This document shows, one piece after another, positions 1 to 32,532 of a stretch of 35,585 bases of DNA. The notes beneath the pieces were generated by a model that saw nothing but the letters and a program-made list of their open reading frames with translations, was not told the DNA's origin and did no database searches. Within the stretch, counting starts at the first letter, position 1. Every line of letters begins with the position of its first letter. This DNA is from Candidatus Bathyarchaeota archaeon (GTDB lineage: Archaea > Thermoproteota > Bathyarchaeia > Bathyarchaeales > SOJC01). The translations under genes and the position numbers were made by a program. The stretch covers positions 1 through 35,585 of the forward strand of contig JAGLZJ010000001.1 of NCBI GenBank assembly GCA_023131555.1. Reading direction: 5' to 3'.

Positions 1-1350
<1,350 letters not shown>

Positions 1351-1372: not shown

Positions 1373-3484
1373 TCATAGGATATATCGATGTCTATCTTTG
1401 AACTCCTGAACTTTTCCTGCGTTCCATCCTCGCAACTGCTGATAGTATCCCGTAATTCTCGACCAATGCTCCAGCTCATCGTCGGTCGCCCCGCAATTCT
1501 TACATTTAATTTGCAGACTTCCTTCCATCGTGCCACATCTTCTACAAATCGTGATGTCTCGAGTGAAGGCGAAGTACGAAGCCAACGATTTCGTAGCGAT
1601 TCGCTTTGTGAAGCTCCAAAGAGCCCTAGGTGAAGGGTGTTCTTCTCCCAGCCAAATGTGCATTATCGCTCCACCCTTGGTTAAAGGGTGGAAGCTTGCT
1701 TCGATCTGCATTCTCTCGGTCAATGCAATTCCTGCGGAGGGACGAACGTGAGAGCTATTTGTGTAGTATATGCCACCATTACCAGTGTCCCCTTGAACAA
1801 CTGCTGCACTTCCCAACAGTTTTCTATCAATTAGAGCCAATCTGTGGGCGCAGCTCTCTGCTGGGGTTTGAATGCACCCAAAGCGGTAGCCTGTCTCTTC
1901 CGCGTAGGCGTCAACTCGCTTGACCATGTGGTCAATAACTTCAAGGCCGAAACGCCATGAAGACGGGTCATCATGTAGCTCCATATTCAGGTGTGCTTTC
2001 AAGAGTTCATTGAGGCCAACGAAGCCTATGTTGAGTACTTGCTTGTCCAAGTTCAAGTAGGGTTCGCCAAAGCAATCCATTGTGCAGAATGGAAGCGAAC
2101 CTTCTTTCATCCTCTTTTTCACAATCCGACGTTTGATTAGCAGAACTTCCTTAGCAAAATCCATTCGCGAGTCCAGAATCTCATAGAGTCGTGAATCGTC
2201 TCCTTTTGCGTCATATGCGATACGAGGTAGGTTTATGGTGACAACTTGGAGGCTTCCCATTCTCATTGCACCTTTGTGGAAGTCTTTCAGTTCATCTCCA
2301 TCAGGCGTAAAGATGAGCCGGCAACATTGGCTGTTCACGATGTCGGGCATGTATTCTGGGCAGAGATTGAGGAAGTAAGGAGTTCCGAACTTCGATGCTA
2401 AAGCAGAAACCTTGAGATACTCGTCTTCAAATTCCTCCAAGTACTCGGGTCTGAGTTTTACTTCGCATTTGGGAAAGTTGAACATCTTTCCTGAGAAATC
2501 ACCGTTCATGTAGACATCGAGGATTGCGTTGAAGAATGCGTTGGCCTCTTCATAGTAGTCGGAGTATGTTGTCGCGTCACTAGCTTTCCCGCCTGGGAGA
2601 ACAGCAGGCACATCTTGGATGATCTTTGGCACAGCGCACTCCAAAGCGATGGATGAGAAGACTGTTTGTCCACCACGGGCAACATACATCTGTGACATCT
2701 CGTAGATGAACATTTGAGCCAGTTGCTTAAGGCGTTTGTATGGTAAACCTTTCAAGAAGGGAGCAAGATATACATTGAAGAAGTCGTAACCTTGACCTCC
2801 AGCCCAGTTAGTCTGAGCAGCAGCTAAAGCCTTTGCAGCGTGAAGGATAGCAACCTCAGGATGTCTTGCAGGTCCAGCAACTGCTGTATGTACGCCTTGC
2901 CCGTCGACAATTAGACCTTTTCTGAGAAAGAAACGCAGATCATGTTCTTGGCAGAAAGGTCTGGTTGCGAAATACTCGAGATCATGAATGTGGATAGTTC
3001 CGGCAATATGAGCATCAGCTAATCGCGGAGGTAAGCAGTTCAGAAGGGAGTATTGGTCGAAGATAGTGTCTGCAGCCAGTTTGTGAATGGTCTCCGGGTT
3101 GTGTTGCAGATTGGCGTTTTCCCGGTCACGAGAGCGAATAAGTCTTTCAACATCAAAGACGGGAAGACCGAGTCGTGTATACTTGGCTCGGGGGGTCTCA
3201 TAGTTGTTTTCCAATAGGGAAACACATACAAACTCTCGAATTAAGGGAGCCGACAGAAAGCCCAGATTTAAAGAGTTTAGTCGATTAGCTGTGTCTTGAG
3301 CAATCTTATCTGCAACTTCTTTTGAGAGTCCGGTCTCCTTCACCAAGGAATCGATGATTCTTTCCGGTTCGAAATCTTCAAACACAATCCCGGATGTTCT
3401 CACCTTGGGGAAATATTTAAGCGAATCAACGGCATACTCGGTTTCAGTCGTAGAAAACCCTCGCAACAGAGCATCATTACACAC
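1373..3484 (-). CDS. nrdD: Anaerobic ribonucleoside-triphosphate reductase, class III (NrdD), apparently intact
   Basis: 703 aa with an N-terminal ATP-cone-like segment and the finger-loop NSQCCRLIF (Cys codons at 2321-2326). A C-terminal Zn ribbon (CRRCG...CKNCG) is followed by the glycyl-radical motif SRITGYYQQ (Gly codon 1448-1450). The start is GTG at 3484. Confidence 0.92.
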   Translation of the reverse strand: MCNDALLRGFSTTETEYAVDSLKYFPKVRTSGIVFEDFEPERIIDSLVKETGLSKEVADKIAQDTANRLNSLNLGFLSAPLIREFVCVSLLENNYETPRAKYTRLGLPVFDVERLIRSRDRENANLQHNPETIHKLAADTIFDQYSLLNCLPPRLADAHIAGTIHIHDLEYFATRPFCQEHDLRFFLRKGLIVDGQGVHTAVAGPARHPEVAILHAAKALAAAQTNWAGGQGYDFFNVYLAPFLKGLPYKRLKQLAQMFIYEMSQMYVARGGQTVFSSIALECAVPKIIQDVPAVLPGGKASDATTYSDYYEEANAFFNAILDVYMNGDFSGKMFNFPKCEVKLRPEYLEEFEDEYLKVSALASKFGTPYFLNLCPEYMPDIVNSQCCRLIFTPDGDELKDFHKGAMRMGSLQVVTINLPRIAYDAKGDDSRLYEILDSRMDFAKEVLLIKRRIVKKRMKEGSLPFCTMDCFGEPYLNLDKQVLNIGFVGLNELLKAHLNMELHDDPSSWRFGLEVIDHMVKRVDAYAEETGYRFGCIQTPAESCAHRLALIDRKLLGSAAVVQGDTGNGGIYYTNSSHVRPSAGIALTERMQIEASFHPLTKGGAIMHIWLGEEHPSPRALWSFTKRIATKSLASYFAFTRDITICRRCGTMEGSLQIKCKNCGATDDELEHWSRITGYYQQLRGWNAGKVQEFKDRHRYIL

Positions 3485-3516
3485 ACATTGTCTTTTAGCA
3501 ATTCAATTGACAGAAT

Positions 3517-3527: not shown

Positions 3528-3684
3528 GCAGGGATGTGCTTGAGAATTTCAAAGCCTGTTTCGCATAAAATGTGTTAATTTTATAGCGGGGGGATTTGAC
3601 TTAAGATTTTTAGTACTTTTTGTATAAAATTTTAGAGTGTATAGCCCACGGAATTCACAGCGACTACCCGCGTCAGCTATGGAT

Positions 3685-5832
3685 TCAGAATGCAAGAAAG
3701 CGCTCGTAAGCAGGATCAGCCATTTCTGAGGTGTTCGTCAACGGGGACAGTCGAGTGGATCCGCAATGCGGACATCTAGCGTGGGTTCCAATGGTCGAAC
3801 TCCTGCATCTATGGCAAATCGTGAAGAATAGTTGGTAGTTGAAAAACCCAATATTCCTTATTGTAAGTTTTTCAGTAATTGGTGCTAGGCCCTCGGGAGT
3901 GAGTGGAGCAAGCTCGTGTAAGATGCAACTCATGTGACCTCCGTGTGAAAGCTGATGAATTCGCTCTTCAATGTCAAGTCTTTCTTCCTGGAAGGGGGAG
4001 ATTTCGTCGACATCTGAGTAGGAGGGCGCTGCTTGGAAGTAGGAGGTTTTTACCATACTTAAGCCGTATTTCTCTAGGTCAAGTTCATAAACTCGTCTTT
4101 TCGCCACCCTGTTTGGAACGATTGCGGGAACAAGTCTGCAATCCGGCTTCTTCCTGAATCGAGATATGTGCTTGTTTACATGTTTAAGGATCTTTTCGAT
4201 AAGGATGTATGTTCGCCCCATGTTGACTTCTTTGTGCGGAAGTATCAGTGCATTGACGGCGTTTGTCAGACCAAGAAGGTTAATTACACGCGTTGTATTC
4301 TCGAGTTTGAAGGAGTCTTCATCGACTTCACAGGCGAGGTATGGTAGAAGGTTCTGTTGGATTCTTTTTTCTATAGCGCGGTATTTAACGTCTAGTGCTT
4401 CAATCGCGATGTCAAGTTGATCTTCAAGCAGATCCAAGAACTTGTCCTCGTCAGATCTCGCTTCAAAGCTGATTCTAGGCAAGTTTATTGTTATAACGTC
4501 TAAGTTTCCCGTGCGATGAGTGTCCAGATCAGATTCTTTGTGCCAGTCGTCTGTCAGTCTAAGACCTGATGCAGAGTACGATGCATGCTTTTGGTTTTCG
4601 AATTGGAGATTTGCGAAATTTACCAGAATGCTCGTTGAGGCCAGTCGATGGGCTTCATGGATAATGTTATTAAAGGATTCATCTTGGGCAGTCTTTGATT
4701 CAAGCTTGACCACGATTCTCGGGTTTAAGAGAGGGTGTTCTATATTCTCTGCAATGAGAGCTCTGAGGAGAAGTGACGCAAAGCTTAAGCTATCACCTTC
4801 GAAGGAGCTTTCTTTTTCATTCGAAAAACTCAGGCTGATTGTCGTTGGGATGGCAGATGTAAGATTGAGACCTCTTATGAAAAGCCTCAGGAGATGCTCT
4901 ATTCTCTTAGACTTGAGATTCCGTGAATAAGCAGCTAGATGTAGATTGAAATCGTCCAGATTTTGGTACCCTGTTGTTTCTGTTGAGATTCTTCGAACGC
5001 TTTTTAATATTGTATTAAGCGCTGACTCCAGTGTTCGAGGGTTTTGCTTTTCCAGAAGATGTGAAATATCATGAGTCATCTCGTGAGGTTTCAGTACCCA
5101 TGTTCCCAGATTATCGAGATGGATGCTTCCACTAAGATGAGCGTCTGCAATTCTCCTTGGCAGAACGTTCAGTAGGGTGTATTCCTCCATGACTGAGTCG
5201 GCAGCTGCTTTGCGGATCGCACTTGCGTTTGGTTGCTGTGAATTAAGCAGACGCGTGACTTCGTGTACAGGTAGACCCAGACGGGTAAGTTTGTGTCTGT
5301 AGTCTTCATAGTGTTTCTCTAGCAGAATGGCGTTTACGATCTCGCGGATTAATGGAGCGGTGAGATACTTGGTTTTGAATCGTTGGAGGCGTTTCTCAGT
5401 CTCGCGAGCAATTCTAAGAGCAAGGTCTGTTGGCACTCCAGCCTCCGTCACCAAAGACTGGGCGATTCTGTTCCGGTCAAATTCCTCCATAGTAAGGTTG
5501 GATGTTCTTACCAGCATCTTCCAGCGTTTGTATGTCCGATCTTCTATCTCGTCTGTAATCTCGATTATTCGACGGCCTAAGACTGTCAAGCTATATCTCT
5601 TGGTCTCGATTTCGGGTTCTATCAGATCGGCGTTTATCAGAGACTTCAAATGATACGCAAATCGACCTGCGTCTCTGCTAGAGTCAAGCTTCAAGGAACT
5701 CATAATTTCGGTATAGGACATTGAGCCGCGGTCTAGAACCATGTCAAGGATCTGCAGACGTATTGGAGAGGATATGGCCTTCAGAACTTTCATTCCAGCC
5801 TTGTGTATCCCTACGTATTTCGGACTGGGCAT
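3685..5832 (-). CDS. Winged-helix DNA-binding domain + ATP-cone-like + NrdD-like body lacking radical-chemistry residues (pseudo-RNR, putative regulator)
   Basis: 715 aa. The N-terminus is ArsR-like wHTH: AISSPIRLQILDMVLDRGSMSYTEIMSSL...RFAYHLKSLINADLIE...YSLTVLGRRIIE. The remainder aligns block by block with the neighbouring NrdD (LTAPLIREIV, TRLGLPV, ADAH, VITINLPRI, terminal CxxC..CxxC). The finger loop reads SASGLRLTD (4555-4569) instead of NSQCCRLIF, and no R-x-x-G-Y motif follows the Zn ribbon. Confidence 0.8.
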   Translation of the reverse strand: MPSPKYVGIHKAGMKVLKAISSPIRLQILDMVLDRGSMSYTEIMSSLKLDSSRDAGRFAYHLKSLINADLIEPEIETKRYSLTVLGRRIIEITDEIEDRTYKRWKMLVRTSNLTMEEFDRNRIAQSLVTEAGVPTDLALRIARETEKRLQRFKTKYLTAPLIREIVNAILLEKHYEDYRHKLTRLGLPVHEVTRLLNSQQPNASAIRKAAADSVMEEYTLLNVLPRRIADAHLSGSIHLDNLGTWVLKPHEMTHDISHLLEKQNPRTLESALNTILKSVRRISTETTGYQNLDDFNLHLAAYSRNLKSKRIEHLLRLFIRGLNLTSAIPTTISLSFSNEKESSFEGDSLSFASLLLRALIAENIEHPLLNPRIVVKLESKTAQDESFNNIIHEAHRLASTSILVNFANLQFENQKHASYSASGLRLTDDWHKESDLDTHRTGNLDVITINLPRISFEARSDEDKFLDLLEDQLDIAIEALDVKYRAIEKRIQQNLLPYLACEVDEDSFKLENTTRVINLLGLTNAVNALILPHKEVNMGRTYILIEKILKHVNKHISRFRKKPDCRLVPAIVPNRVAKRRVYELDLEKYGLSMVKTSYFQAAPSYSDVDEISPFQEERLDIEERIHQLSHGGHMSCILHELAPLTPEGLAPITEKLTIRNIGFFNYQLFFTICHRCRSSTIGTHARCPHCGSTRLSPLTNTSEMADPAYERFLAF

Positions 5833-5961: not shown

Positions 5962-6063
5962 GCGGCGGTAGCCAAGCCAGGTCAACAGACAGTGACCAAA
6001 GGCGAAGGACTCAAGATCCTTTCCCATAGGGGTTCGCCGGTTCGAATCCGGCCCGCCGCACCA
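5962..6063 (+). tRNA. tRNA-Leu (anticodon CAA) with long variable arm, genomically encoded CCA and an extra 14 nt in the D-loop
   Basis: Acceptor GCGGCGG (5962-5968) pairs with CCGCCGC (6053-6059), followed by discriminator A and CCA at 6061-6063. The T-arm is GCCGG-TTCGAAT-CCGGC. The anticodon arm is AAGGA-CTCAAGA-TCCTT (CAA), and the variable arm is CCC-ATA-GGG. The total is 102 nt, which is 88 nt after removing the insertion. Confidence 0.88.
5986..5999 (+). other. Putative non-canonical tRNA intron in the D-loop (14 nt; boundaries ambiguous by up to 3 nt because CAA flanks both sides)
   Basis: The D-arm reads GCCAAGCCAGGTCAA[CAGACAGTGACCAA]AGGCG. Without the bracketed segment it matches the usual archaeal tRNA-Leu D-arm (GCC.AG.C.GG..AAAGGCG). 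GGTCA (5980-5984) and TGACC (5993-5997) can pair across the insertion. Confidence 0.5.
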
Positions 6064-9969: not shown

Positions 9970-10362
9970 ATGAGACAGCCCTGCGAAGTCAGTACGAAAT
10001 CCATCGTGCCTGCAATTCGAGCGCTCCTCGCAGATGAACTCTTGACCACTCATGGTCTTAGGCAGAGGGAAGTTGCAGTACTACTTGGCATAACTCAGAC
10101 TGCTATAAGTAAATACACACATCATGTGAGAGGAGCAACTGTTTCAATAGGAACGGAAAGGGAAATTAGGGTGCAGATAGAGAAAACAGCAACCCTGCTG
10201 GCCAGTGGTAACATAGAAAAGAAGATGCTTGCCCTCAGAATCTGCAGACTGTGCAGACTGGCTCGAAGAAAAGGCATAATGTGCAAATTATGTAGACACG
10301 CAACAGAGGCATCAATCAACTACAGCACACCATGTGAGCTTTGCACAGAACCTCTTAAGTGA
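9970..10362 (+). CDS. HTH transcriptional regulator (COG2522-like archaeal family) with C-terminal Cys-rich tail
   Basis: PCEVSTKSIVPAIRALLADELLTTHGLRQREVAVLLGITQTAISKYTHHVRG matches the archaeal PCE...LPAIR..LA..L...G.SQ.EIA..LG.T.AAVSQY pattern. The tail is CRLCRLARRKGIMCKLCRH...CELC (three CxxC pairs). Confidence 0.65.
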   Translation: MRQPCEVSTKSIVPAIRALLADELLTTHGLRQREVAVLLGITQTAISKYTHHVRGATVSIGTEREIRVQIEKTATLLASGNIEKKMLALRICRLCRLARRKGIMCKLCRHATEASINYSTPCELCTEPLK

Positions 10363-10389
10363 CAGTAAGCCACTCGCGCAAACGGATCT

Positions 10390-11559
10390 TTAAAGGACAC
10401 TGAGTAAGATAGAGGCGAGTAGAAAGCTCATCACAACTGCTCCAAAGGCTATGAAGAAAGCCCGTGTCCAAGATACACCGTCTATCTTCATCAGGGCTAT
10501 GGTGCATAGGACCGTGGTCCATACTATGTTTGTTATAAAGTTCAGTATTGAGACAGGTAGACTCCAAACCTGTGTGATACTCAAGTATTCGTCGTACGTG
10601 TATCTGTAAGGTAAAAAGATCGGAGGAAGCAATAGAAAGAGAACTGAAAGCACGAGGAGGTATATGATGTACGGAGAGTAGATGTATCCGACGGTGTACA
10701 GCAAAGATCTCCACGAGCCTTTCCATCCTGAGAAAACCTGCATAGCTACAGAAGCGATTGTGGCTAAGATCAGCCACTTCAAAAGGAAGTCCAAGCTAGT
10801 TACCCAGAGGGTCTGCATTCTGATTTCCAGACTGCTGTGAGATAGGGCTGAACTGAATCTGCCGAAGAAAAGACCATCAACCTTCAACGTGAGATTAGCG
10901 GGGTGGCTCCAAGAAAGGCGGAACCCGACTCCCGTGATGCTGTCCCAACTCGGCGAATTTTCTGGCGCTATCCAGGCATCATTGCAGAGAACCAAGGCAT
11001 TCAAGCCTGTAAGGTTCAGCCAGATGTTACTCTCATTTAATAGGTAGGGTTCCAGATCCAGTTCATATCGATGGCTCTCTTCACTGTGAGAAAAGAGTTG
11101 CAGGACTGCAGCTGTCGGGTTTTCCCCAGTCTCATGGAGCCATTTTAAGTTGAAAGATAGTCGATTCTCCTCTTGTTTCGAGAAATTCAAGTGCTCGATT
11201 CCATTGAGATTCAGCCAGATGATTGAATCGTTCTCGGAAGAAGTGTACACGCTATAGTTTCCAGATATTTTGTCGCTTTCGTCGAAACCCACAACTCCAT
11301 TCGATAGCCACGCAGGCGATGTCTGATTCAAAAGGCTTTCAGTCCACAGATCGTAATCAGGCGTAGGCTGTTCCAAGAAGAGCCGCGAGCCATTCAAATG
11401 TTGCACCCCAAGGGTTATCGGAATTGCGACCAGGAAAATTAGCAGCGGTCCTTTCACGCTGGGGCTCTTTACAATCTCATTAAAAGTTTTTGCTGGAGAC
11501 CAAAGGACTGCGAATGTCCACTTAATGAACCGCCACCAAAGATGTTCCTTTGTCTCCAT
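10390..11559 (-). CDS. Yip1-like multi-pass membrane protein with a large extracytoplasmic insertion
   Basis: 389 aa. The N-terminus has WSPAKTFNEIVKSPSVKGPLLIFLVAI (a Yip1/DUF1282-like motif plus TM1). A roughly 200-aa hydrophilic segment carries about 8 N-x-S/T sequons. Four to five TM helices follow at the C-terminus. Confidence 0.5.
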   Translation of the reverse strand: METKEHLWWRFIKWTFAVLWSPAKTFNEIVKSPSVKGPLLIFLVAIPITLGVQHLNGSRLFLEQPTPDYDLWTESLLNQTSPAWLSNGVVGFDESDKISGNYSVYTSSENDSIIWLNLNGIEHLNFSKQEENRLSFNLKWLHETGENPTAAVLQLFSHSEESHRYELDLEPYLLNESNIWLNLTGLNALVLCNDAWIAPENSPSWDSITGVGFRLSWSHPANLTLKVDGLFFGRFSSALSHSSLEIRMQTLWVTSLDFLLKWLILATIASVAMQVFSGWKGSWRSLLYTVGYIYSPYIIYLLVLSVLFLLLPPIFLPYRYTYDEYLSITQVWSLPVSILNFITNIVWTTVLCTIALMKIDGVSWTRAFFIAFGAVVMSFLLASILLSVL

Positions 11560-11579
11560 TGTCAGAACTCCAATGAGGG

Positions 11580-13103
11580 TTATATTGAACTTAGACCTTC
11601 CTTAAGCCTTCTGTAGGTGCCGTAGTCCACGTATTGCAGGAACTCGTTCTCGGCTTGATGTGCAACCGTGAATCTCTGGCGATTCTGACTCTCTTTCAGC
11701 TGTTTCGTTGCAATGAATGAGTAAGCATCAGCGCCAGCTCCAGATCCATAACTCGCCAATAGGATTCTATCGTCAGGTTCTGCTACATCTAAAACTGCCG
11801 CTAAGCCAATTGGTGAACAGCCTGAGTATGTGTTTCCGAATTTCTTCACTAGAAGACCCGGCTCGAATTGCTCCTCCCGAAAACCTAGTGCTTTAGCCAC
11901 ACGCGTTGGAAATGCAGCGTTCGGTTGATGAGCAACAAAGTAGGTGATGTCTTGGGGCTTTAAGCTTAATTTTTCCATCAGTTTCTGAACGACCTTAGTT
12001 ACATGCTTAAAGTATGCAGGTTTTCCAGTAAATCTACCTCCGTGGCTAGGATAAGGCTGCAGATCTCTTCTCCAGAAGTCTGGAGTGTCTGAAGTAATAG
12101 AGATCCAGCCTTCAAATTGAGCGATCACATCATACATGCCGAAAATGAAGGCGCATGCGCCGTAACCGACGAAGAAGTCTAGTTCGCCACCTGGTTCACC
12201 TCGTGGGGCGGCCTGCGAATTGTCAGTCCCAATGACCATAGTATAGGATTTCTTCGATTCCGGGTAAAAGACCAGAGAGGCTGCATCCTTAAACATGCTT
12301 GTTGCTGCCTTGCATGCGAACTCTGTGTCTACTGCATCAACGCATTGAAGTCCTTCCTTGTGTTCTTCCTCTCCCAAGTTTAGCACTTGTGCAACTTTAG
12401 AGGCGATCGGTTTTACAGCATAAGGATTGGACTCTGATCCAACGTACACTTTACTTACCAGTCGATGATCAATCTCAGAGTTGATGAGTCCAAATTTTCC
12501 AGCTTCAACGGCCGCGGTAATGGCATCTTCATCGAAAAACGGGATAGATCGCTCGATTGCACCTTCTTTGATCCGAAACCTTGAGGTGTAAGCACCATAC
12601 CCCACAATTCCTGGGCGTTCATATTCCTTTGAGGGTTTAGCGATTTTTCGTTCGTGATAAGGGTAGTATTCGTCGGCGAAAGTGAAGGCAAGAGTGATCG
12701 TAGGTACTATTCCACTTGAGTCAACAGCGTGTCGCCTTCGGAACCGAGGGACAACATTTCTGCCTTCCAGATCTTCGAAATCGACGTCTTCATCATTGGC
12801 GATTATTTTATCAGTCAGTCGTCCAGGAAAACGCACTGAGCCATCGTGGAATGAGACCAAACCATAGATGTAGGGACCTAATCGCGTGAATTTATTCGTT
12901 GGTTTGTCCACCAGAGTGCATGTCTCAAGCGTTCCTTCCTCATAGAAGAAGTCAATGTTCTTCATTTTCCCAAAGCTTTCTCTTCCACACGCACCACAGT
13001 AGTCTTTGAGTTTGAAGTACTCCTTTCCGCAAAGCTCGCAACGACTACCGCGTAGCCTGTCACCTATGTGCGACACTCGGTGTTCTATCGGTTCACTGCT
13101 CAA
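11580..13103 (-). CDS. Fusion of a DUF35 (Zn-ribbon + OB-fold) domain to hydroxymethylglutaryl-CoA synthase
   Basis: The N-terminus has CELCGKEYFKLKDYCGACG (C-x2-C-x10-C-x2-C) followed by an OB-like segment GTLETCTLVD...YIYGLVSFHDGSVRFPGRL. The HMGCS body starts around aa 165 (GIVGYGAYTSRFRIK) with VGSESNPYAVKP (Glu), DTEFACKAATS (Cys), TSDTPDFWRR..HGGRFTGKPAYFKHV, VAHQPNAAF (His) and GNTYSGCSP. The TTG start lies 1 nt after the stop of the upstream gene. Confidence 0.85.
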   Translation of the reverse strand: MSSEPIEHRVSHIGDRLRGSRCELCGKEYFKLKDYCGACGRESFGKMKNIDFFYEEGTLETCTLVDKPTNKFTRLGPYIYGLVSFHDGSVRFPGRLTDKIIANDEDVDFEDLEGRNVVPRFRRRHAVDSSGIVPTITLAFTFADEYYPYHERKIAKPSKEYERPGIVGYGAYTSRFRIKEGAIERSIPFFDEDAITAAVEAGKFGLINSEIDHRLVSKVYVGSESNPYAVKPIASKVAQVLNLGEEEHKEGLQCVDAVDTEFACKAATSMFKDAASLVFYPESKKSYTMVIGTDNSQAAPRGEPGGELDFFVGYGACAFIFGMYDVIAQFEGWISITSDTPDFWRRDLQPYPSHGGRFTGKPAYFKHVTKVVQKLMEKLSLKPQDITYFVAHQPNAAFPTRVAKALGFREEQFEPGLLVKKFGNTYSGCSPIGLAAVLDVAEPDDRILLASYGSGAGADAYSFIATKQLKESQNRQRFTVAHQAENEFLQYVDYGTYRRLKEGLSSI

Positions 13104-13104
13104 T

Positions 13105-14301
13105 CTAATCCATTCCTAATAGGAAGACGTATGCTTTTGTGCCAAAGCCCTCCAACTCGTGAACGCACCCATTCTTGAGAGCGTCCGCCTTAATCTGGCG
13201 TTCACCAGCCTCACGCCTCAATTGCTTAAATACTTCAAAGACTTGAGCGCCTCCTGTAGCACCTAAAGGATTTCCATCTGCTTTGAGCCCGCCGTTAACA
13301 TTGATAAACAGCTTTTCACCATTGATCTCGTAGCAACCTTCACTACTGATGTAGTTTTCTTGAACGCTTTTCCATGCTTCTCCTTTCCCGTAAAAGCCGA
13401 GGTCTTCCAGCGTTACCAGTCCAACGAAAGTGGATTGATCATAAATTTGAAGAACTGAGATGTCATTCAATCCTACACTTGATGCTTCCAGAGCTCCTTT
13501 CATTGCAAGTCTTGAGGATAGAAACCCAGTGAGGTCCCTTCTTGATGGAAACGTGATATAATCAGTCGCGAGCGAATAACCTAGGATGCTTACTGGCTTT
13601 TGAGTATACGAGTTCGCGCTATCTGAATCAGACAGGATCAGAGCAGAAGCTCCGTCTGATACTGGTGCAAAATCGTATAGTCCGAGAGGGCGCCTCAGTT
13701 TCCTTCTTGATCCTAACACCATATCTACTGAAATCTTTCGTTGGAACTGAGCAAACTCATTCTTCAACGCGTTCTCATGGTTTCTAACAGATAACTCTGC
13801 TAGGGTAAGCATCAACAAGTTTCTCTCATTGTCATGGAGACGATGTGTCTTCATGTAGGATCGAAGCATGAGTTCATGGTTTGACTCTGGTGTGCCACCC
13901 GCATAATAGCTCCAAGGATCCTCTAGAAGCATCAGATCGTCTCGGATTTTATCCCATCGGTCAGTCATCTTTTCCATTCCTCCAACAAGCACAAGCGAAT
14001 ACTTACCAGCCTGAACTGCATTGCACGCGTTAGAAAGAGCTGAGCTGAAAGACCGAGTGATCTCCATGGGAATATTCAGTTCAAGGAGTTCAGACAGAAA
14101 GCCTTCTTCAAGCCCAATCTTGTTCGTGATAGGAAGGAAGTAGTCGGCAAAGAAGCATGCGTCCAAGTCTTCTCTTTCTACATCTACTGACCTGAGCGCA
14201 ACAAGTCCGGCCTCTTCAACGAGGTGCTCAGGATCCCTTTCATAGTGTTCACCAAACTTAGTTCTACCTACGCCAACAACAGCCGGTCCTTTTTCCGTCA
14301 T
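13105..14301 (-). CDS. Thiolase-fold protein (archaeal/SCP-x thiolase-like); canonical catalytic residues not recognisable
   Basis: 398 aa with clear thiolase-family blocks: VGVGRTKFGE, LVLVGGMEKMTD, APVSDGASALIL, LEDLGF and NVNGGLKADGNPLGATG. However, the expected A-C-A-S-G nucleophile site reads RSFSS (14041-14055). The H-D-C-F site reads YDQS (13432-13443). The G-H-x-x-G-A-T-G site reads GNPLGATG (Asn codon 13270-13272). Confidence 0.75.
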   Translation of the reverse strand: MTEKGPAVVGVGRTKFGEHYERDPEHLVEEAGLVALRSVDVEREDLDACFFADYFLPITNKIGLEEGFLSELLELNIPMEITRSFSSALSNACNAVQAGKYSLVLVGGMEKMTDRWDKIRDDLMLLEDPWSYYAGGTPESNHELMLRSYMKTHRLHDNERNLLMLTLAELSVRNHENALKNEFAQFQRKISVDMVLGSRRKLRRPLGLYDFAPVSDGASALILSDSDSANSYTQKPVSILGYSLATDYITFPSRRDLTGFLSSRLAMKGALEASSVGLNDISVLQIYDQSTFVGLVTLEDLGFYGKGEAWKSVQENYISSEGCYEINGEKLFINVNGGLKADGNPLGATGGAQVFEVFKQLRREAGERQIKADALKNGCVHELEGFGTKAYVFLLGMD

Positions 14302-30720: not shown

Positions 30721-30815
30721 TTTCCTCCCAGATGTACGCGTGTAATCCCTTTAACTCAACTCCTTTAAGGTTTATCTCTGCTAATCAATAACATTTATTG
30801 AGCGGGATTAGACTC

Positions 30816-31727
30816 ATGGGGAACATCTTGGAAACGGACCTTGCAGGATTGAAGCTTGATAATCCGACGATGCTTGCTGCAGGCGTATTAGGGTTATCAC
30901 GCAAATCTCTGATGCGGGTAGGCAACGCGGGCGCAGGCGCAGTAGTGTCGAAGTCGCTAGGAATCGAACCTCGCCACGGGTATGAAAACCCGACCTTGGT
31001 TCAGGTTGAAGGCGGTATCCTCAATGCGATGGGGCTGCCTAATCCTGGAATCCGTACTTTCATGCAGGAGATAGCAGAGAGTAGATTAAACGTTCCACTC
31101 ATCGTAAGCCTCTATGCGTTCTCCCCGAGGGAATTCGCAACGGCTGCACACAAAGCCTCGGCAATGGGCGTAGACGGGTTGGAGCTAAACGTCTCCTGCC
31201 CACATACAATTGGGACAGGTCAGGAGATTGGCAGAGATCCTGAGCGGATAAAGAACATCGTAGAGTCAGCAAGAAAGGTGGTGGACGTGCCGTTGTTCGT
31301 CAAGTTGACGCCAAATGTTACAGACATCGTGGAGCTAGCTGAGGCTGCTGAGAGAGCGGGAGCCGATGGAATAACAGCAATCAATACTGTCAAAGCTATG
31401 GCTATAGACATCGAAACTTCGAAGCCAATCCTTTCCAATAGGATAGGAGGCTTATCTGGCTCAGCCATTAGACCAATAGCAGTAAGATGTGTATACGAGA
31501 TCTATCAAGCAGTAAAAATCCCGATCATCGGCTGTGGAGGAGTAGACTCGTGGCAAGCGGCTGTGCAGTTTATCCAAGCAGGAGCCTCTGCTGTTCAAAT
31601 CGGAACAGCCATTGCCACTAAAGGGCTTTCGATCTTCAGGAACGTAAATGAAGGGGTTGAAGGTTTTCTCAATCGAAAAGGTTACGGAAGCGTGAAAGAG
31701 ATTGTTGGGCTATCGCATCGAAGCTAA
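30816..31727 (+). CDS. pyrD: Dihydroorotate dehydrogenase catalytic subunit (class 1B)
   Basis: LKLDNPTMLAAG, LELNVSCPH, INT... and GGLSGSAIRPIAVR. I prefer ATG 30816 over the track TTG at 30798. Confidence 0.9.
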   Translation: MGNILETDLAGLKLDNPTMLAAGVLGLSRKSLMRVGNAGAGAVVSKSLGIEPRHGYENPTLVQVEGGILNAMGLPNPGIRTFMQEIAESRLNVPLIVSLYAFSPREFATAAHKASAMGVDGLELNVSCPHTIGTGQEIGRDPERIKNIVESARKVVDVPLFVKLTPNVTDIVELAEAAERAGADGITAINTVKAMAIDIETSKPILSNRIGGLSGSAIRPIAVRCVYEIYQAVKIPIIGCGGVDSWQAAVQFIQAGASAVQIGTAIATKGLSIFRNVNEGVEGFLNRKGYGSVKEIVGLSHRS

Positions 31728-31731
31728 CGTT

Positions 31732-32532
31732 ATGAGAACAACGCGGATCGAGAAAGTCGATGACGAAAACGAGGTGGTTAAGACACTTCATTTCAGAGAT
31801 CATCTTTGTGCAAATGCGGAGCCAGGTCAGTTTGTCATGGTGTGGCTCCCAGGAGTCGATGAAATCCCTATGAGCATTTCCTCCGCTTACCAGAGCAGAA
31901 TGGCATCGATAACTGTGGGAAGAGTTGGAGAAGCAACTAGAATGCTGCACAAAAAGACAAAAGGAGACTTTATCGGTATCCGAGGACCATTCGGAAACAG
32001 CTTCAGACCAATTGAAGGAAGGGTTTTGGTTGTCGGCGGCGGGACGGGGATCGCGCCATTAGCGTTTCTGCTAGAAAGATTGGTCGCCAGTGCTCAGACA
32101 GTGAAGTGCTTCCTCGGAGCCAAGAATCGACAAGAGCTCCTCTTCCTGTCGAGAATTCGCAGCCTGTTTGCGGGAAGAGCAGAAACAGAAATCGAGACTT
32201 CAACCGAGGACGGAAGCTTCGGACACAAGGGAGTTGTAACAGAACTGGTAGAAGCTACATTGGCTACGCAGACCTTTGACATGATATATGCTTGTGGAAG
32301 AGAATCAATGCTTCTCGAAATCTTCCATCTTGCTCAGAAGTATGAAATTCCACTTCAGGTTAGTTTGGAGAGAATCATGCGGTGTGCAATAGGGTTGTGT
32401 GGAAGCTGCAACATCGGCAAGTACAGAGTCTGTGCTGACGGACCGATCTTCACTCATAAGCAACTCGCGGAAGTAAAAGTCGAATTCGGGTTTCAAAAGA
32501 GAGATTTCGACGGAAGAAGAATATCGAGCTGA
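31732..32532 (+). CDS. pyrK: Dihydroorotate dehydrogenase electron-transfer subunit (FAD / 2Fe-2S)
   Basis: PGQFVMVWLPGVDEIPMSIS, VGGGTGIAP and MRCAIGLCGSCNIGKYRVCADGPIF. ATG 31732 lies 4 nt after the pyrD stop; the track start at 31702 overlaps pyrD. Confidence 0.88.
   Translation: MRTTRIEKVDDENEVVKTLHFRDHLCANAEPGQFVMVWLPGVDEIPMSISSAYQSRMASITVGRVGEATRMLHKKTKGDFIGIRGPFGNSFRPIEGRVLVVGGGTGIAPLAFLLERLVASAQTVKCFLGAKNRQELLFLSRIRSLFAGRAETEIETSTEDGSFGHKGVVTELVEATLATQTFDMIYACGRESMLLEIFHLAQKYEIPLQVSLERIMRCAIGLCGSCNIGKYRVCADGPIFTHKQLAEVKVEFGFQKRDFDGRRISS

Follow-up and report, generated by a model that had tools for sequence, protein, structure and literature searches.

The stretch analysed here, 35,585 nucleotides (nt) of contig JAGLZJ010000001.1 from a Candidatus Bathyarchaeota archaeon and referred to below as the window, carries on its reverse strand the gene of a putative regulator of ribonucleotide reductase (RNR) genes. 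The predicted protein joins an N-terminal winged helix and an ATP-cone to a body that resembles class III RNR (NrdD), and its gene lies 200 nt upstream of nrdD, which encodes a genuine class III RNR, in the same orientation (Table 1). An earlier note made from the window sequence had described this arrangement, and all of its coordinates were re-derived and hold.

Table 1. Features of the regulator-nrdD locus in the window.
Feature	Positions	Strand	Basis or remark
Regulator gene: winged-helix + ATP-cone + dead NrdD-like protein (putative RNR regulator)	3685..5832	(-)	715-aa open reading frame
ArsR-like winged helix-turn-helix, residues 11-100	5533..5802	(-)	DUF7347, Foldseek
Recognition helix of the winged helix, RDAGRFAYHLKSLIN	5632-5676	(-)	
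ATP-cone, residues 106-178, 'VRTS' variant	5299..5517	(-)	PF03477
Class III RNR-like body, residues 198-693, catalytically and allosterically eroded	3754..5241	(-)	Pfam NRDD, Foldseek
C-terminal CxxC...CxxC Zn ribbon (C673, C676, C687, C690)	3763..3816	(-)	
Conserved nrdD promoter module and candidate operator	3599..3659	(-)	comparative conservation
Second TGTCAA-type element, TGTCAATTGAAT	3501..3512	(-)	between TATA-like TTTTTTATATG and nrdD GTG start
Genuine class III RNR gene nrdD, presumed regulated gene	1373..3484	(-)	703 aa
pyrB (aspartate carbamoyltransferase), convergent with nrdD	289..1350	(+)	conserved neighbour

Profile and structure searches recovered the three modules that the earlier note had read from the sequence. 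In Pfam, the N-terminus matched the DUF7347 winged helix at residues 16-91 (31.4 bits, cut-off 27.6), matches to HTH_5 and HTH_20 being weak and that to HTH_5 below its cut-off (19 versus 22); the ATP-cone scored 28.4 bits against a cut-off of 25.8; and the body matched NRDD (PF13597) with an E-value of 1.4e-55, over profile positions 5-530 of 562 only. The NrdD equivalog model of NCBIfam, TIGR02487, gave 191.3 bits, under its cut-off of 326.35. No NrdR model was found among the NCBIfam matches of the protein, of which those nearest to the ATP-cone included the cone of archaeal 2-phosphoglycerate kinase. An AlphaFold model computed with 60 homologues (predicted local distance difference test score 80, predicted template modelling score 0.74) was compared with known structures by Foldseek. 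Its body resembled the class III RNR structures 9dau, 8p2s, 4coj and 1hk8 (E-values 1e-19 to 1e-23, template modelling (TM) score up to 0.73), and its first ~90 residues resembled the ArsR/SmtB proteins HlyU, ArsR, SmtB and CzrA with a probability of 1.00 (TM scores 0.64-0.73, root mean square deviation 2.4-2.7 Å), in agreement with the DNA-binding fold predicted for this part by the earlier note. The H-L-[KR] feature of the ArsR/SmtB recognition helix is present as FAYHLK, and the motif [DE][AS]G[RK]F.YHL[KR] is nearly invariant across the family of homologues described below. Cys or His clusters of the kind that form metal or redox sites on alpha-3 or alpha-5 of ArsR/SmtB proteins are absent, residues 11-100 containing no Cys and a single His. 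BLASTP aligned the regulator with the neighbouring NrdD over 649 columns at 29% identity (E-value 2e-69), reproducing the matching blocks quoted in the earlier note, and the ancestry that the two proteins share is clear from this alignment. Resemblance to the neighbouring NrdD is greatest in the cone and the helices that follow it, which are also the most constrained segments of the protein.

The neighbouring NrdD is itself complete: it matches Pfam NRDD over the full profile (positions 1-562, 527 bits), scores 518.3 bits with TIGR02487 (cut-off 326.35) and carries RENANL, HIHD, the beta-1 Cys, a finger-loop Cys-Cys-Arg (Cys-Cys codons at 2321-2326) and RITGYY, the radical Gly included, at 1442-1459. 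The corresponding sites of the regulator are lost. When the family profile was aligned with the solved NrdDs of T4, S. thermophilus and P. copri (9d3x, 8p23, 1h78), its g-l-r fell opposite their G-C-R, and the thiyl Cys position is thus Leu424 (4561-4563), within the finger loop YSASGLRLT (4552-4578). The beta-1 Cys position is occupied by Met252 (5077-5079), the HxHD motif, HIHD in the neighbour, reads HLDN (5110-5121), and the NxN flap (RDRENAN in the neighbour), the specificity-site beta-hairpin and loop 2 are deleted; the roles of these elements, among them the binding of the substrate triphosphate by HxHD, are those described for P. copri NrdD (PMC11226230). There is no glycyl-radical domain, the protein ending 25 residues past the Zn ribbon with no RxxG[YF] motif. 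Rescue of the Gly motif by a frameshift, as in a pseudogene, was considered and rejected: the downstream open frame, CEFRGLYTLKF, does not contain it and the orthologues end at the same place. The earlier note was thus right about the missing finger-loop Cys and glycyl-radical motif, and wrong in supposing that the allosteric nucleotide-binding parts had been kept, since only a non-canonical ATP-cone is left of them. Judged from sequence, catalysis is impossible, with all catalytic determinants gone and most of the allosteric ones too; active site and specificity site are both eroded, and the ATP-cone is the sole remaining possible nucleotide site.

In the cone, the Lys-Arg pair of the canonical VxKRDG motif (Lys7/Arg8 of P. 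copri NrdD) is replaced by V108-R109-T110-S111, while the YxxYR motif and R184 are kept. These equivalences come from motif alignment by eye, the family profile having aligned the barrel only with the solved structures, and a phmmer search with the cone segment returned nothing useful for mapping residues onto solved ATP-cones. True archaeal NrdDs also carry a cone of the 'VRTS' type. Because this non-canonical cone, devoid of the Lys-Arg pair, is all that remains, nucleotide sensing by the regulator is plausible but uncertain.

The protein belongs to a large family. More than 120 close homologues share its architecture, which recurs in dozens of clusters of a 50%-identity library, down to ~27% identity, and in thousands of metagenome proteins. 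Relatives were found in at least 408 species-representative genomes; the best 80 of the 408 are all labelled Bathyarchaeia/Thermoproteota, except for a single contig under the label Krumholzibacteriaceae, and the complete genome of Ca. Bathyarchaeum tardum is among them. Cluster names place further members in Nitrososphaerales and Thorarchaeota, the latter represented by one metagenome-assembled genome (MAG). The family is an old one, spread across Bathyarchaeia, Nitrososphaeria and Asgard archaea. The deviant contig, L034 (DATKLC010000012.1, Candidatus Krumholzibacteriaceae bacterium), has pyrB after a regulator gene of typical Bathyarchaeia type and is probably mis-binned.

Loss of the catalytic residues is graded within the family, as seen in a comparison of 61 group A and 59 group B homologues. 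The four Cys of the Zn ribbon are kept in 59/61 and in at least 58/59 of them, respectively. Group B proteins (740-775 aa) retain the finger-loop Cys in 46 of 59 cases, and their C-terminus reads RVS-A-K where NrdD has RIT-G-Y, the position of the Gly being taken by Ala in 42 and Ser in 6 and never by Gly. In group A (~700 aa), to which the window protein belongs, none of the 61 has the finger-loop Cys and the C-terminus is truncated after the Zn ribbon. Group C has the finger loop FSxSGVKL and stops at FDRFxST. Among 110 aligned representatives with a long N-terminus, 92 have none of the three catalytic residues; a Gly persists at the radical position in ~12 distant ones, and Cys and Gly occur together in only 3, all of them true NrdDs that have two ATP-cones and lack the winged helix. 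An intermediate form, still active as NrdD but already fused to a winged helix, was sought among the 50%-identity representatives, and the proteins that keep both Cys and Gly lacked the winged helix. In distant members, where the NRDD score drops from 295 down to 21 bits, the winged helix and the cone remain at E-values of 1e-7 to 1e-10, which marks these two modules as the conserved core. A stepwise decay is thus visible over the clades, from replacement of Gly by Ala with the Cys kept, through truncation of the glycyl-radical part with loss of the Cys, to a barrel that is almost gone.

The ratio of non-synonymous to synonymous substitution rates (dN/dS), relative to a 79%-identical orthologue in L006, was 0.11 for the whole protein, 0.020 for the winged helix, 0.017 for the ATP-cone, 0.030 for residues 181-260 and 0.18 for the barrel, at a dS of ~1.1 that is near saturation. 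Some barrel features, such as the N443 equivalent and a PR motif, are conserved, and many columns of the family alignment are invariant. The gene is functional and under strong purifying selection, and the neutral decay that the earlier note had raised as a way to refute its proposal is not borne out.

In Bathyarchaeia, the conserved unit consists of the regulator gene, an optional glutaredoxin-like gene, nrdD and the convergent pyrB. The survey of synteny suggested in the earlier note covered 70 informative loci, and in 44 of them nrdD comes directly after the regulator gene. Of the remaining 26, 23 have pyrB abutting the stop codon of the regulator gene, and nrdD has therefore gone from its slot; no class II RNR gene was detected within 5 kb in the nrdD-less loci. 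pyrB follows nrdD in 13 Bathyarchaeia loci and nrdJ, the class II RNR gene, in L087; in both settings it stands, often together with pyrI, as a conserved companion of the regulator-RNR unit. In the window, pyrD and pyrK lie ~27 kb from pyrB (30798-32532, (+)). Not every missing nrdD counts against linkage: the apparent absence in L018/L086 (CP070730.1) was discarded as such because a 100-N scaffold gap follows directly after the conserved nrdD promoter, and in L006 (CP070765.1) the NrdD match stops after residue 162. In both of these MAG 'chromosome' assemblies nrdD seems to be missing or collapsed.

A metagenome scan with a profile of members from beyond Bathyarchaeia gave 80 loci, 73 of them informative. 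In 72/73 the regulator gene is followed on the same strand, at a distance of 131-671 nt, by a class I/II-type RNR gene, and no nrdD was found in any of the Nitrososphaeria-type loci. An RNR of the Ribonuc_red_lgC type follows the regulator gene in three distinct subfamilies. The two downstream RNRs that were tested, of L143 and L089, are assigned to class II (B12-dependent) because both pass the NrdJ_Z cut-off of NCBIfam (731 and 533 bits versus 400). Homologues are found in the aerobic ammonia oxidisers Ca. Nitrosotenuis aquarius, cloacae, chungbukensis and sp. DW1, in which oxygen-sensitive glycyl-radical enzymes are not expected to work. The regulator is thus no recent paralogue specific to the nrdD of the window, which corrects the picture given in the earlier note: its family is old, spans several clades, stands before class II nrdJ in Nitrososphaeria and lacks an adjacent nrdD in 26/70 Bathyarchaeia loci. 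Linked to RNR genes regardless of their class, III (nrdD) or II (nrdJ), it behaves like a regulator dedicated to RNR.

The downstream class II RNR gene of the Nitrososphaerales-type locus L087/L088 holds an intein (Intein_splicing and LAGLIDADG_3; 10270-13719).

Conserved non-coding elements were found upstream of these RNR genes. In Nitrososphaeria, the inverted repeat TGTCAA-N5/6-TTGACA stands upstream of nrdJ and scored at least 10/12 in 45/72 regions, as compared with 21/210 other intergenic windows of the same loci and 73/1440 shuffles, the counted sequences being related by descent and not independent events. It is perfect in L100 and L117, and takes the form TTGTCAAGAAGAGTTCACAG in the soil clade and GGTGTCAACAAAATTGATCC in the marine clade. 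Upstream of the regulator gene itself, the signal is weak in Nitrososphaeria (16/75). An almost perfect palindrome, AAATGTCCATCTTGTGGACAGAC (TGTCCA-N5-TGGACA), is shared by marine Nitrososphaeria loci (L149, L151-L153, L167, L169, L170 and L172), in which it precedes the regulator gene by ~117-136 nt; its core differs from the TGTCAA/TTGACA found upstream of nrdJ.

In Bathyarchaeia, AATTT-N14-TAYACAGAATTTTATAC-N8-YCTAAAAA is conserved upstream of nrdD, or of the glutaredoxin-like gene and nrdD, in groups A and B, although the NrdDs of the two groups are only ~41% identical. At least 12 Bathyarchaeia loci have TGTCAATTT at a distance of exactly 29 nt from the nrdD TATA box, on its upstream side; this element, often followed by G.TTGAG, is related to the Nitrososphaeria nrdJ palindrome, and the nearly invariant recognition helix would fit a half-site shared across the family. 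The module of the window comprises, in order, TGTGAATTC (3651-3659), 30 nt, the TATA box TTTTATAC (3622-3629) and CTAAAAA..TTAAGT (3599-3613). The regions proposed for DNA binding in the earlier note can be narrowed to this promoter module with its TGTCAA-type element, ~3599-3659. The second element at 3501..3512, also scored in the palindrome scan, is a weak candidate, less canonical and specific to the window. An operator shared by the regulator and nrdD promoters of Bathyarchaeia was tried and rejected: k-mer and CTAAAA-type counts were enriched in the nrdD promoter only, and autoregulation is therefore unsupported in this group.

Between the conserved nrdD promoter and the nrdD start, an inverted repeat AAAATTYACA-N6-8-TGTRWA occurs at ~3561-3584 (-) of the window and at the equivalent places of L001, L008, L012, L013 and L016. 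Its arms appear to co-vary between loci (ACAT/ATGT, ACAA/TTGT, GAC/GTC), and the implied nrdD leader, of ~120 nt, is long for an archaeal mRNA. The repeat may fold as a hairpin in the RNA or serve as another site for a protein.

Taken together, these data make it fairly probable that the 715-residue protein is a non-catalytic, RNR-derived transcription regulator dedicated to RNR genes, an archaeal functional analogue of bacterial NrdR that would act like NrdR while standing outside the NrdR family. DNA binding is predicted from the fold, the gene order and the candidate palindrome. By reference to NrdD structures, the NrdD-like body and its Zn ribbon would form a dimeric scaffold, whose two N-terminal ArsR-like winged helices would bind a TGTCAA-N5/6-TTGACA dyad near the adjacent RNR promoter, as the comparative footprints suggest; in the window the target would be nrdD, 200 nt downstream. 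The ATP-cone, placed between head and body, would by analogy bind an adenine nucleotide, most likely ATP or dATP, and the nucleotide may shift the position of the cone or the oligomeric state and so alter DNA binding, as proposed after NrdR and the ATP-cone control of class III RNRs. The core idea of the earlier note, a NrdR-like regulator made from a dead RNR, is strengthened by the size of the family, purifying selection, gene order with two RNR classes and a recurring palindrome, while the broad retention of allosteric sites falls away. A wider version is somewhat less secure, falling a little short of an even chance: that the family is an unrecognised, widespread archaeal counterpart of NrdR, a master regulator of deoxynucleoside triphosphate (dNTP) synthesis derived from a dead class III RNR, reading adenine nucleotides by its ATP-cone and acting at a TGTCAA-N5/6-TTGACA operator before whichever RNR class is used, in Bathyarchaeia, ammonia-oxidising Nitrososphaeria and some Asgard archaea.

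Several observations weigh against this interpretation. The ATP-cone lacks the canonical Lys-Arg phosphate-binding pair and is of the 'VRTS' type seen in the inner cone of double-cone archaeal NrdDs, and inner cones of tandem pairs can fail to bind ligand (10.1101/2022.04.23.489257). The full palindrome is only weakly enriched in Bathyarchaeia (10/44 regions with a score of at least 10 versus ~9% of shuffles), the window site TGTGAATTC is degenerate, the palindrome counts carry the common descent noted above, and no shared motif was found upstream of the Bathyarchaeia regulator gene itself. Finally, no nrdD stands beside the regulator gene in 26/70 Bathyarchaeia loci, and no RNR gene was found near the loci of Thorarchaeota and of a subfamily of 566-589 aa; an RNR target would have to be reached in trans in all of these.

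Among the other explanations, the one that survives best, though we judge it unlikely, is a DNA-binding regulator whose main target or signal is not RNR or dNTPs, for example pyrimidine biosynthesis (pyrB/pyrI) or replication-linked genes, with a cone that is purely structural or serves another phosphorylated ligand. The persistence of pyrB as convergent neighbour, abutting the regulator gene in 23/26 nrdD-less loci and following nrdJ in L087, speaks for it, as do the non-canonical cone with its NCBIfam match to that of archaeal 2-phosphoglycerate kinase and the several subfamilies without an RNR neighbour. A convergent pyrB, however, has no promoter region in common with the regulator gene; its linkage is absent from most Nitrososphaeria loci, where that to RNR holds in 72/73, and the conserved non-coding elements sit before RNR genes.

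Distinctly less probable is a role as non-catalytic partner of active NrdD in hetero-oligomers, tuning its activity or stability, with a winged helix that is accessory or serves for tethering. Yeast Rnr4 with Rnr2 and the dATP-induced tetramers of NrdD provide models for such a subunit, and it would account for the strong constraint on, and closest resemblance to the neighbouring NrdD of, the cone and next helices, as well as for the adjacency of the two genes on the same strand in 44/70 Bathyarchaeia loci. Since the dead class III protein precedes a class II gene in aerobes, with no nrdD found in those loci, it is not an NrdD partner there. Its gene is also intact and conserved in the 23 Bathyarchaeia loci where the nrdD slot is empty, deletion has removed the specificity-site hairpin and loop 2, by which the site at the NrdD dimer interface is formed and read, and the winged helix is the best conserved part of the protein, unlike a mere accessory domain.

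That the protein is still an enzyme, whether a reductase using other residues or another radical source or a catalyst of new chemistry on the RNR barrel, is very improbable. The barrel fold, the Zn ribbon and some barrel residues (the N443 equivalent and PR motif) are conserved, a Cys persists at the thiyl position in 46/59 group B proteins and a Gly at the radical position in ~12 distant representatives; yet no winged-helix member has the two together, HxHD, the NxN flap and loop 2 are gone, the barrel evolves fastest and is near-undetectable in distant members, no activase gene was found in the window, and the family thrives in aerobes. A decaying nrdD copy with a chance fusion, suggested by the loss of all catalytic residues, is refuted by intact orthologues in at least 408 species genomes and thousands of metagenome proteins, a dN/dS of 0.11 and many invariant columns.

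The proposed RNR regulator can be compared with several known systems. NrdR, made of an N-terminal Zn ribbon and an ATP-cone, likewise joins a DNA-binding module to an ATP-cone and is likewise associated with RNR genes of several classes (here class III nrdD in 44/70 loci and class I/II-type genes in 72/73). The adenine-nucleotide-dependent control of RNR transcription through oligomeric state, described for NrdR (PMC9110341), is presumed for the archaeal regulator too. In contrast to NrdR, the archaeal protein would bind DNA by an ArsR-type winged helix and not by the Zn ribbon, adds a dead class III RNR body of ~500 aa, has a cone that passes the Pfam cut-off (28.4 versus 25.8) but reads R-T-S in place of the Lys-Arg pair, is archaeal in distribution and has no NrdR sequence membership; its candidate operator was derived from archaeal RNR promoters only. 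With class III NrdD (PF13597/TIGR02487) it shares the fold, the archaeal-NrdD type of cone and the C-terminal Zn ribbon. It differs from NrdD by the lack of both catalytic Cys, the glycyl-radical domain, HxHD, the NxN flap, loop 2 and the specificity-site hairpin, by the added winged helix and by a TIGR02487 score below cut-off.

One-component regulators built on pseudoenzymes are known, such as B. subtilis PurR (a winged helix with an inactive phosphoribosyltransferase), NrtR (a Nudix-like domain with a winged helix) and the ROK repressors. As in our case, these carry a DNA-binding head on a dead copy of an enzyme of their own pathway, and their genes lie beside the pathway genes; here, by contrast, the scaffold is an RNR, to our knowledge not described in such a role, and the ligand sites of the enzyme are eroded, sensing being left to the accessory ATP-cone. 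Dead RNR subunits have also been repurposed, yeast Rnr4 and herpesvirus R1 homologues such as M45 of murine cytomegalovirus being members of the RNR family kept for another role after the loss of catalysis, as proposed here. Those are class I subunits that act by protein-protein contacts, and we know of no DNA-binding domain or proposed transcription role in either.

In open-access papers and preprints, we found neither a description of a winged-helix/ATP-cone/dead-NrdD architecture or family, nor an account of RNR gene control in Bathyarchaeia or ammonia-oxidising archaea. As far as we can tell, the scaffold, the family and the candidate operator are new, and the concept joins two known kinds, ATP-cone-based RNR regulators and pseudoenzyme-based one-component regulators. 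If true, the family would be a clear example of how an essential radical enzyme can be put to new use as a regulator of its own pathway. NrdR occurs in most bacteria and in only some archaea (PMC9110341). With a candidate protein and operator, and with hosts in culture or enrichment such as the Nitrosotenuis species, the present family makes the question of RNR control in archaea testable.

The annotation of the family deserves attention. Nitrosotenuis homologues are named 'anaerobic ribonucleoside-triphosphate reductase', 'ribonucleoside-triphosphate reductase (formate)' (RefSeq/PGAP, JGI) or 'ArsR family transcriptional regulator'. The protein of L143, a marine relative 85-92% identical to them, scores 82 bits with TIGR02487 (cut-off 326), and the aligned representatives of the Nitrosotenuis-type clade have neither the thiyl Cys nor the radical Gly. 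The misannotation seems to be systematic. Databases mostly give members of the family the name 'anaerobic ribonucleoside-triphosphate reductase', which is borne by thousands of entries, RefSeq proteins of obligate aerobes among them, and a class III RNR or an anaerobic capacity deduced from it in metabolic reconstructions would be wrong.

Two further features of the Bathyarchaeia loci were noted. The genuine NrdDs have two adjacent Cys before the Arg of the finger loop, and their genes start with GTG or TTG. In group B loci (L003-L005) nrdD is preceded by a glutaredoxin-like gene of 102-108 aa, and the regulator-nrdD gap of group A loci, that of the window among them, is devoid of such a gene. 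The finger-loop Cys-Cys and the glutaredoxin-like gene of group B suggest that this class III RNR is redoxin-dependent rather than formate-dependent. Upstream of the regulator gene, between it and a proteasome beta-subunit gene, the window carries a 99-nt tRNA gene at 5962-6060 (+) (RF00005, 50.7 bits in Rfam), missed by ARAGORN in bacterial mode, which probably contains an intron and a long variable arm and, read by eye, looks like tRNA-Leu(CAA). The usual regulator promoter CCTTTAAAC is absent in the window and in L006, and the same tRNA gene is found upstream of the regulator gene in the orthologous loci L006, L010, L012, L014 and L015.

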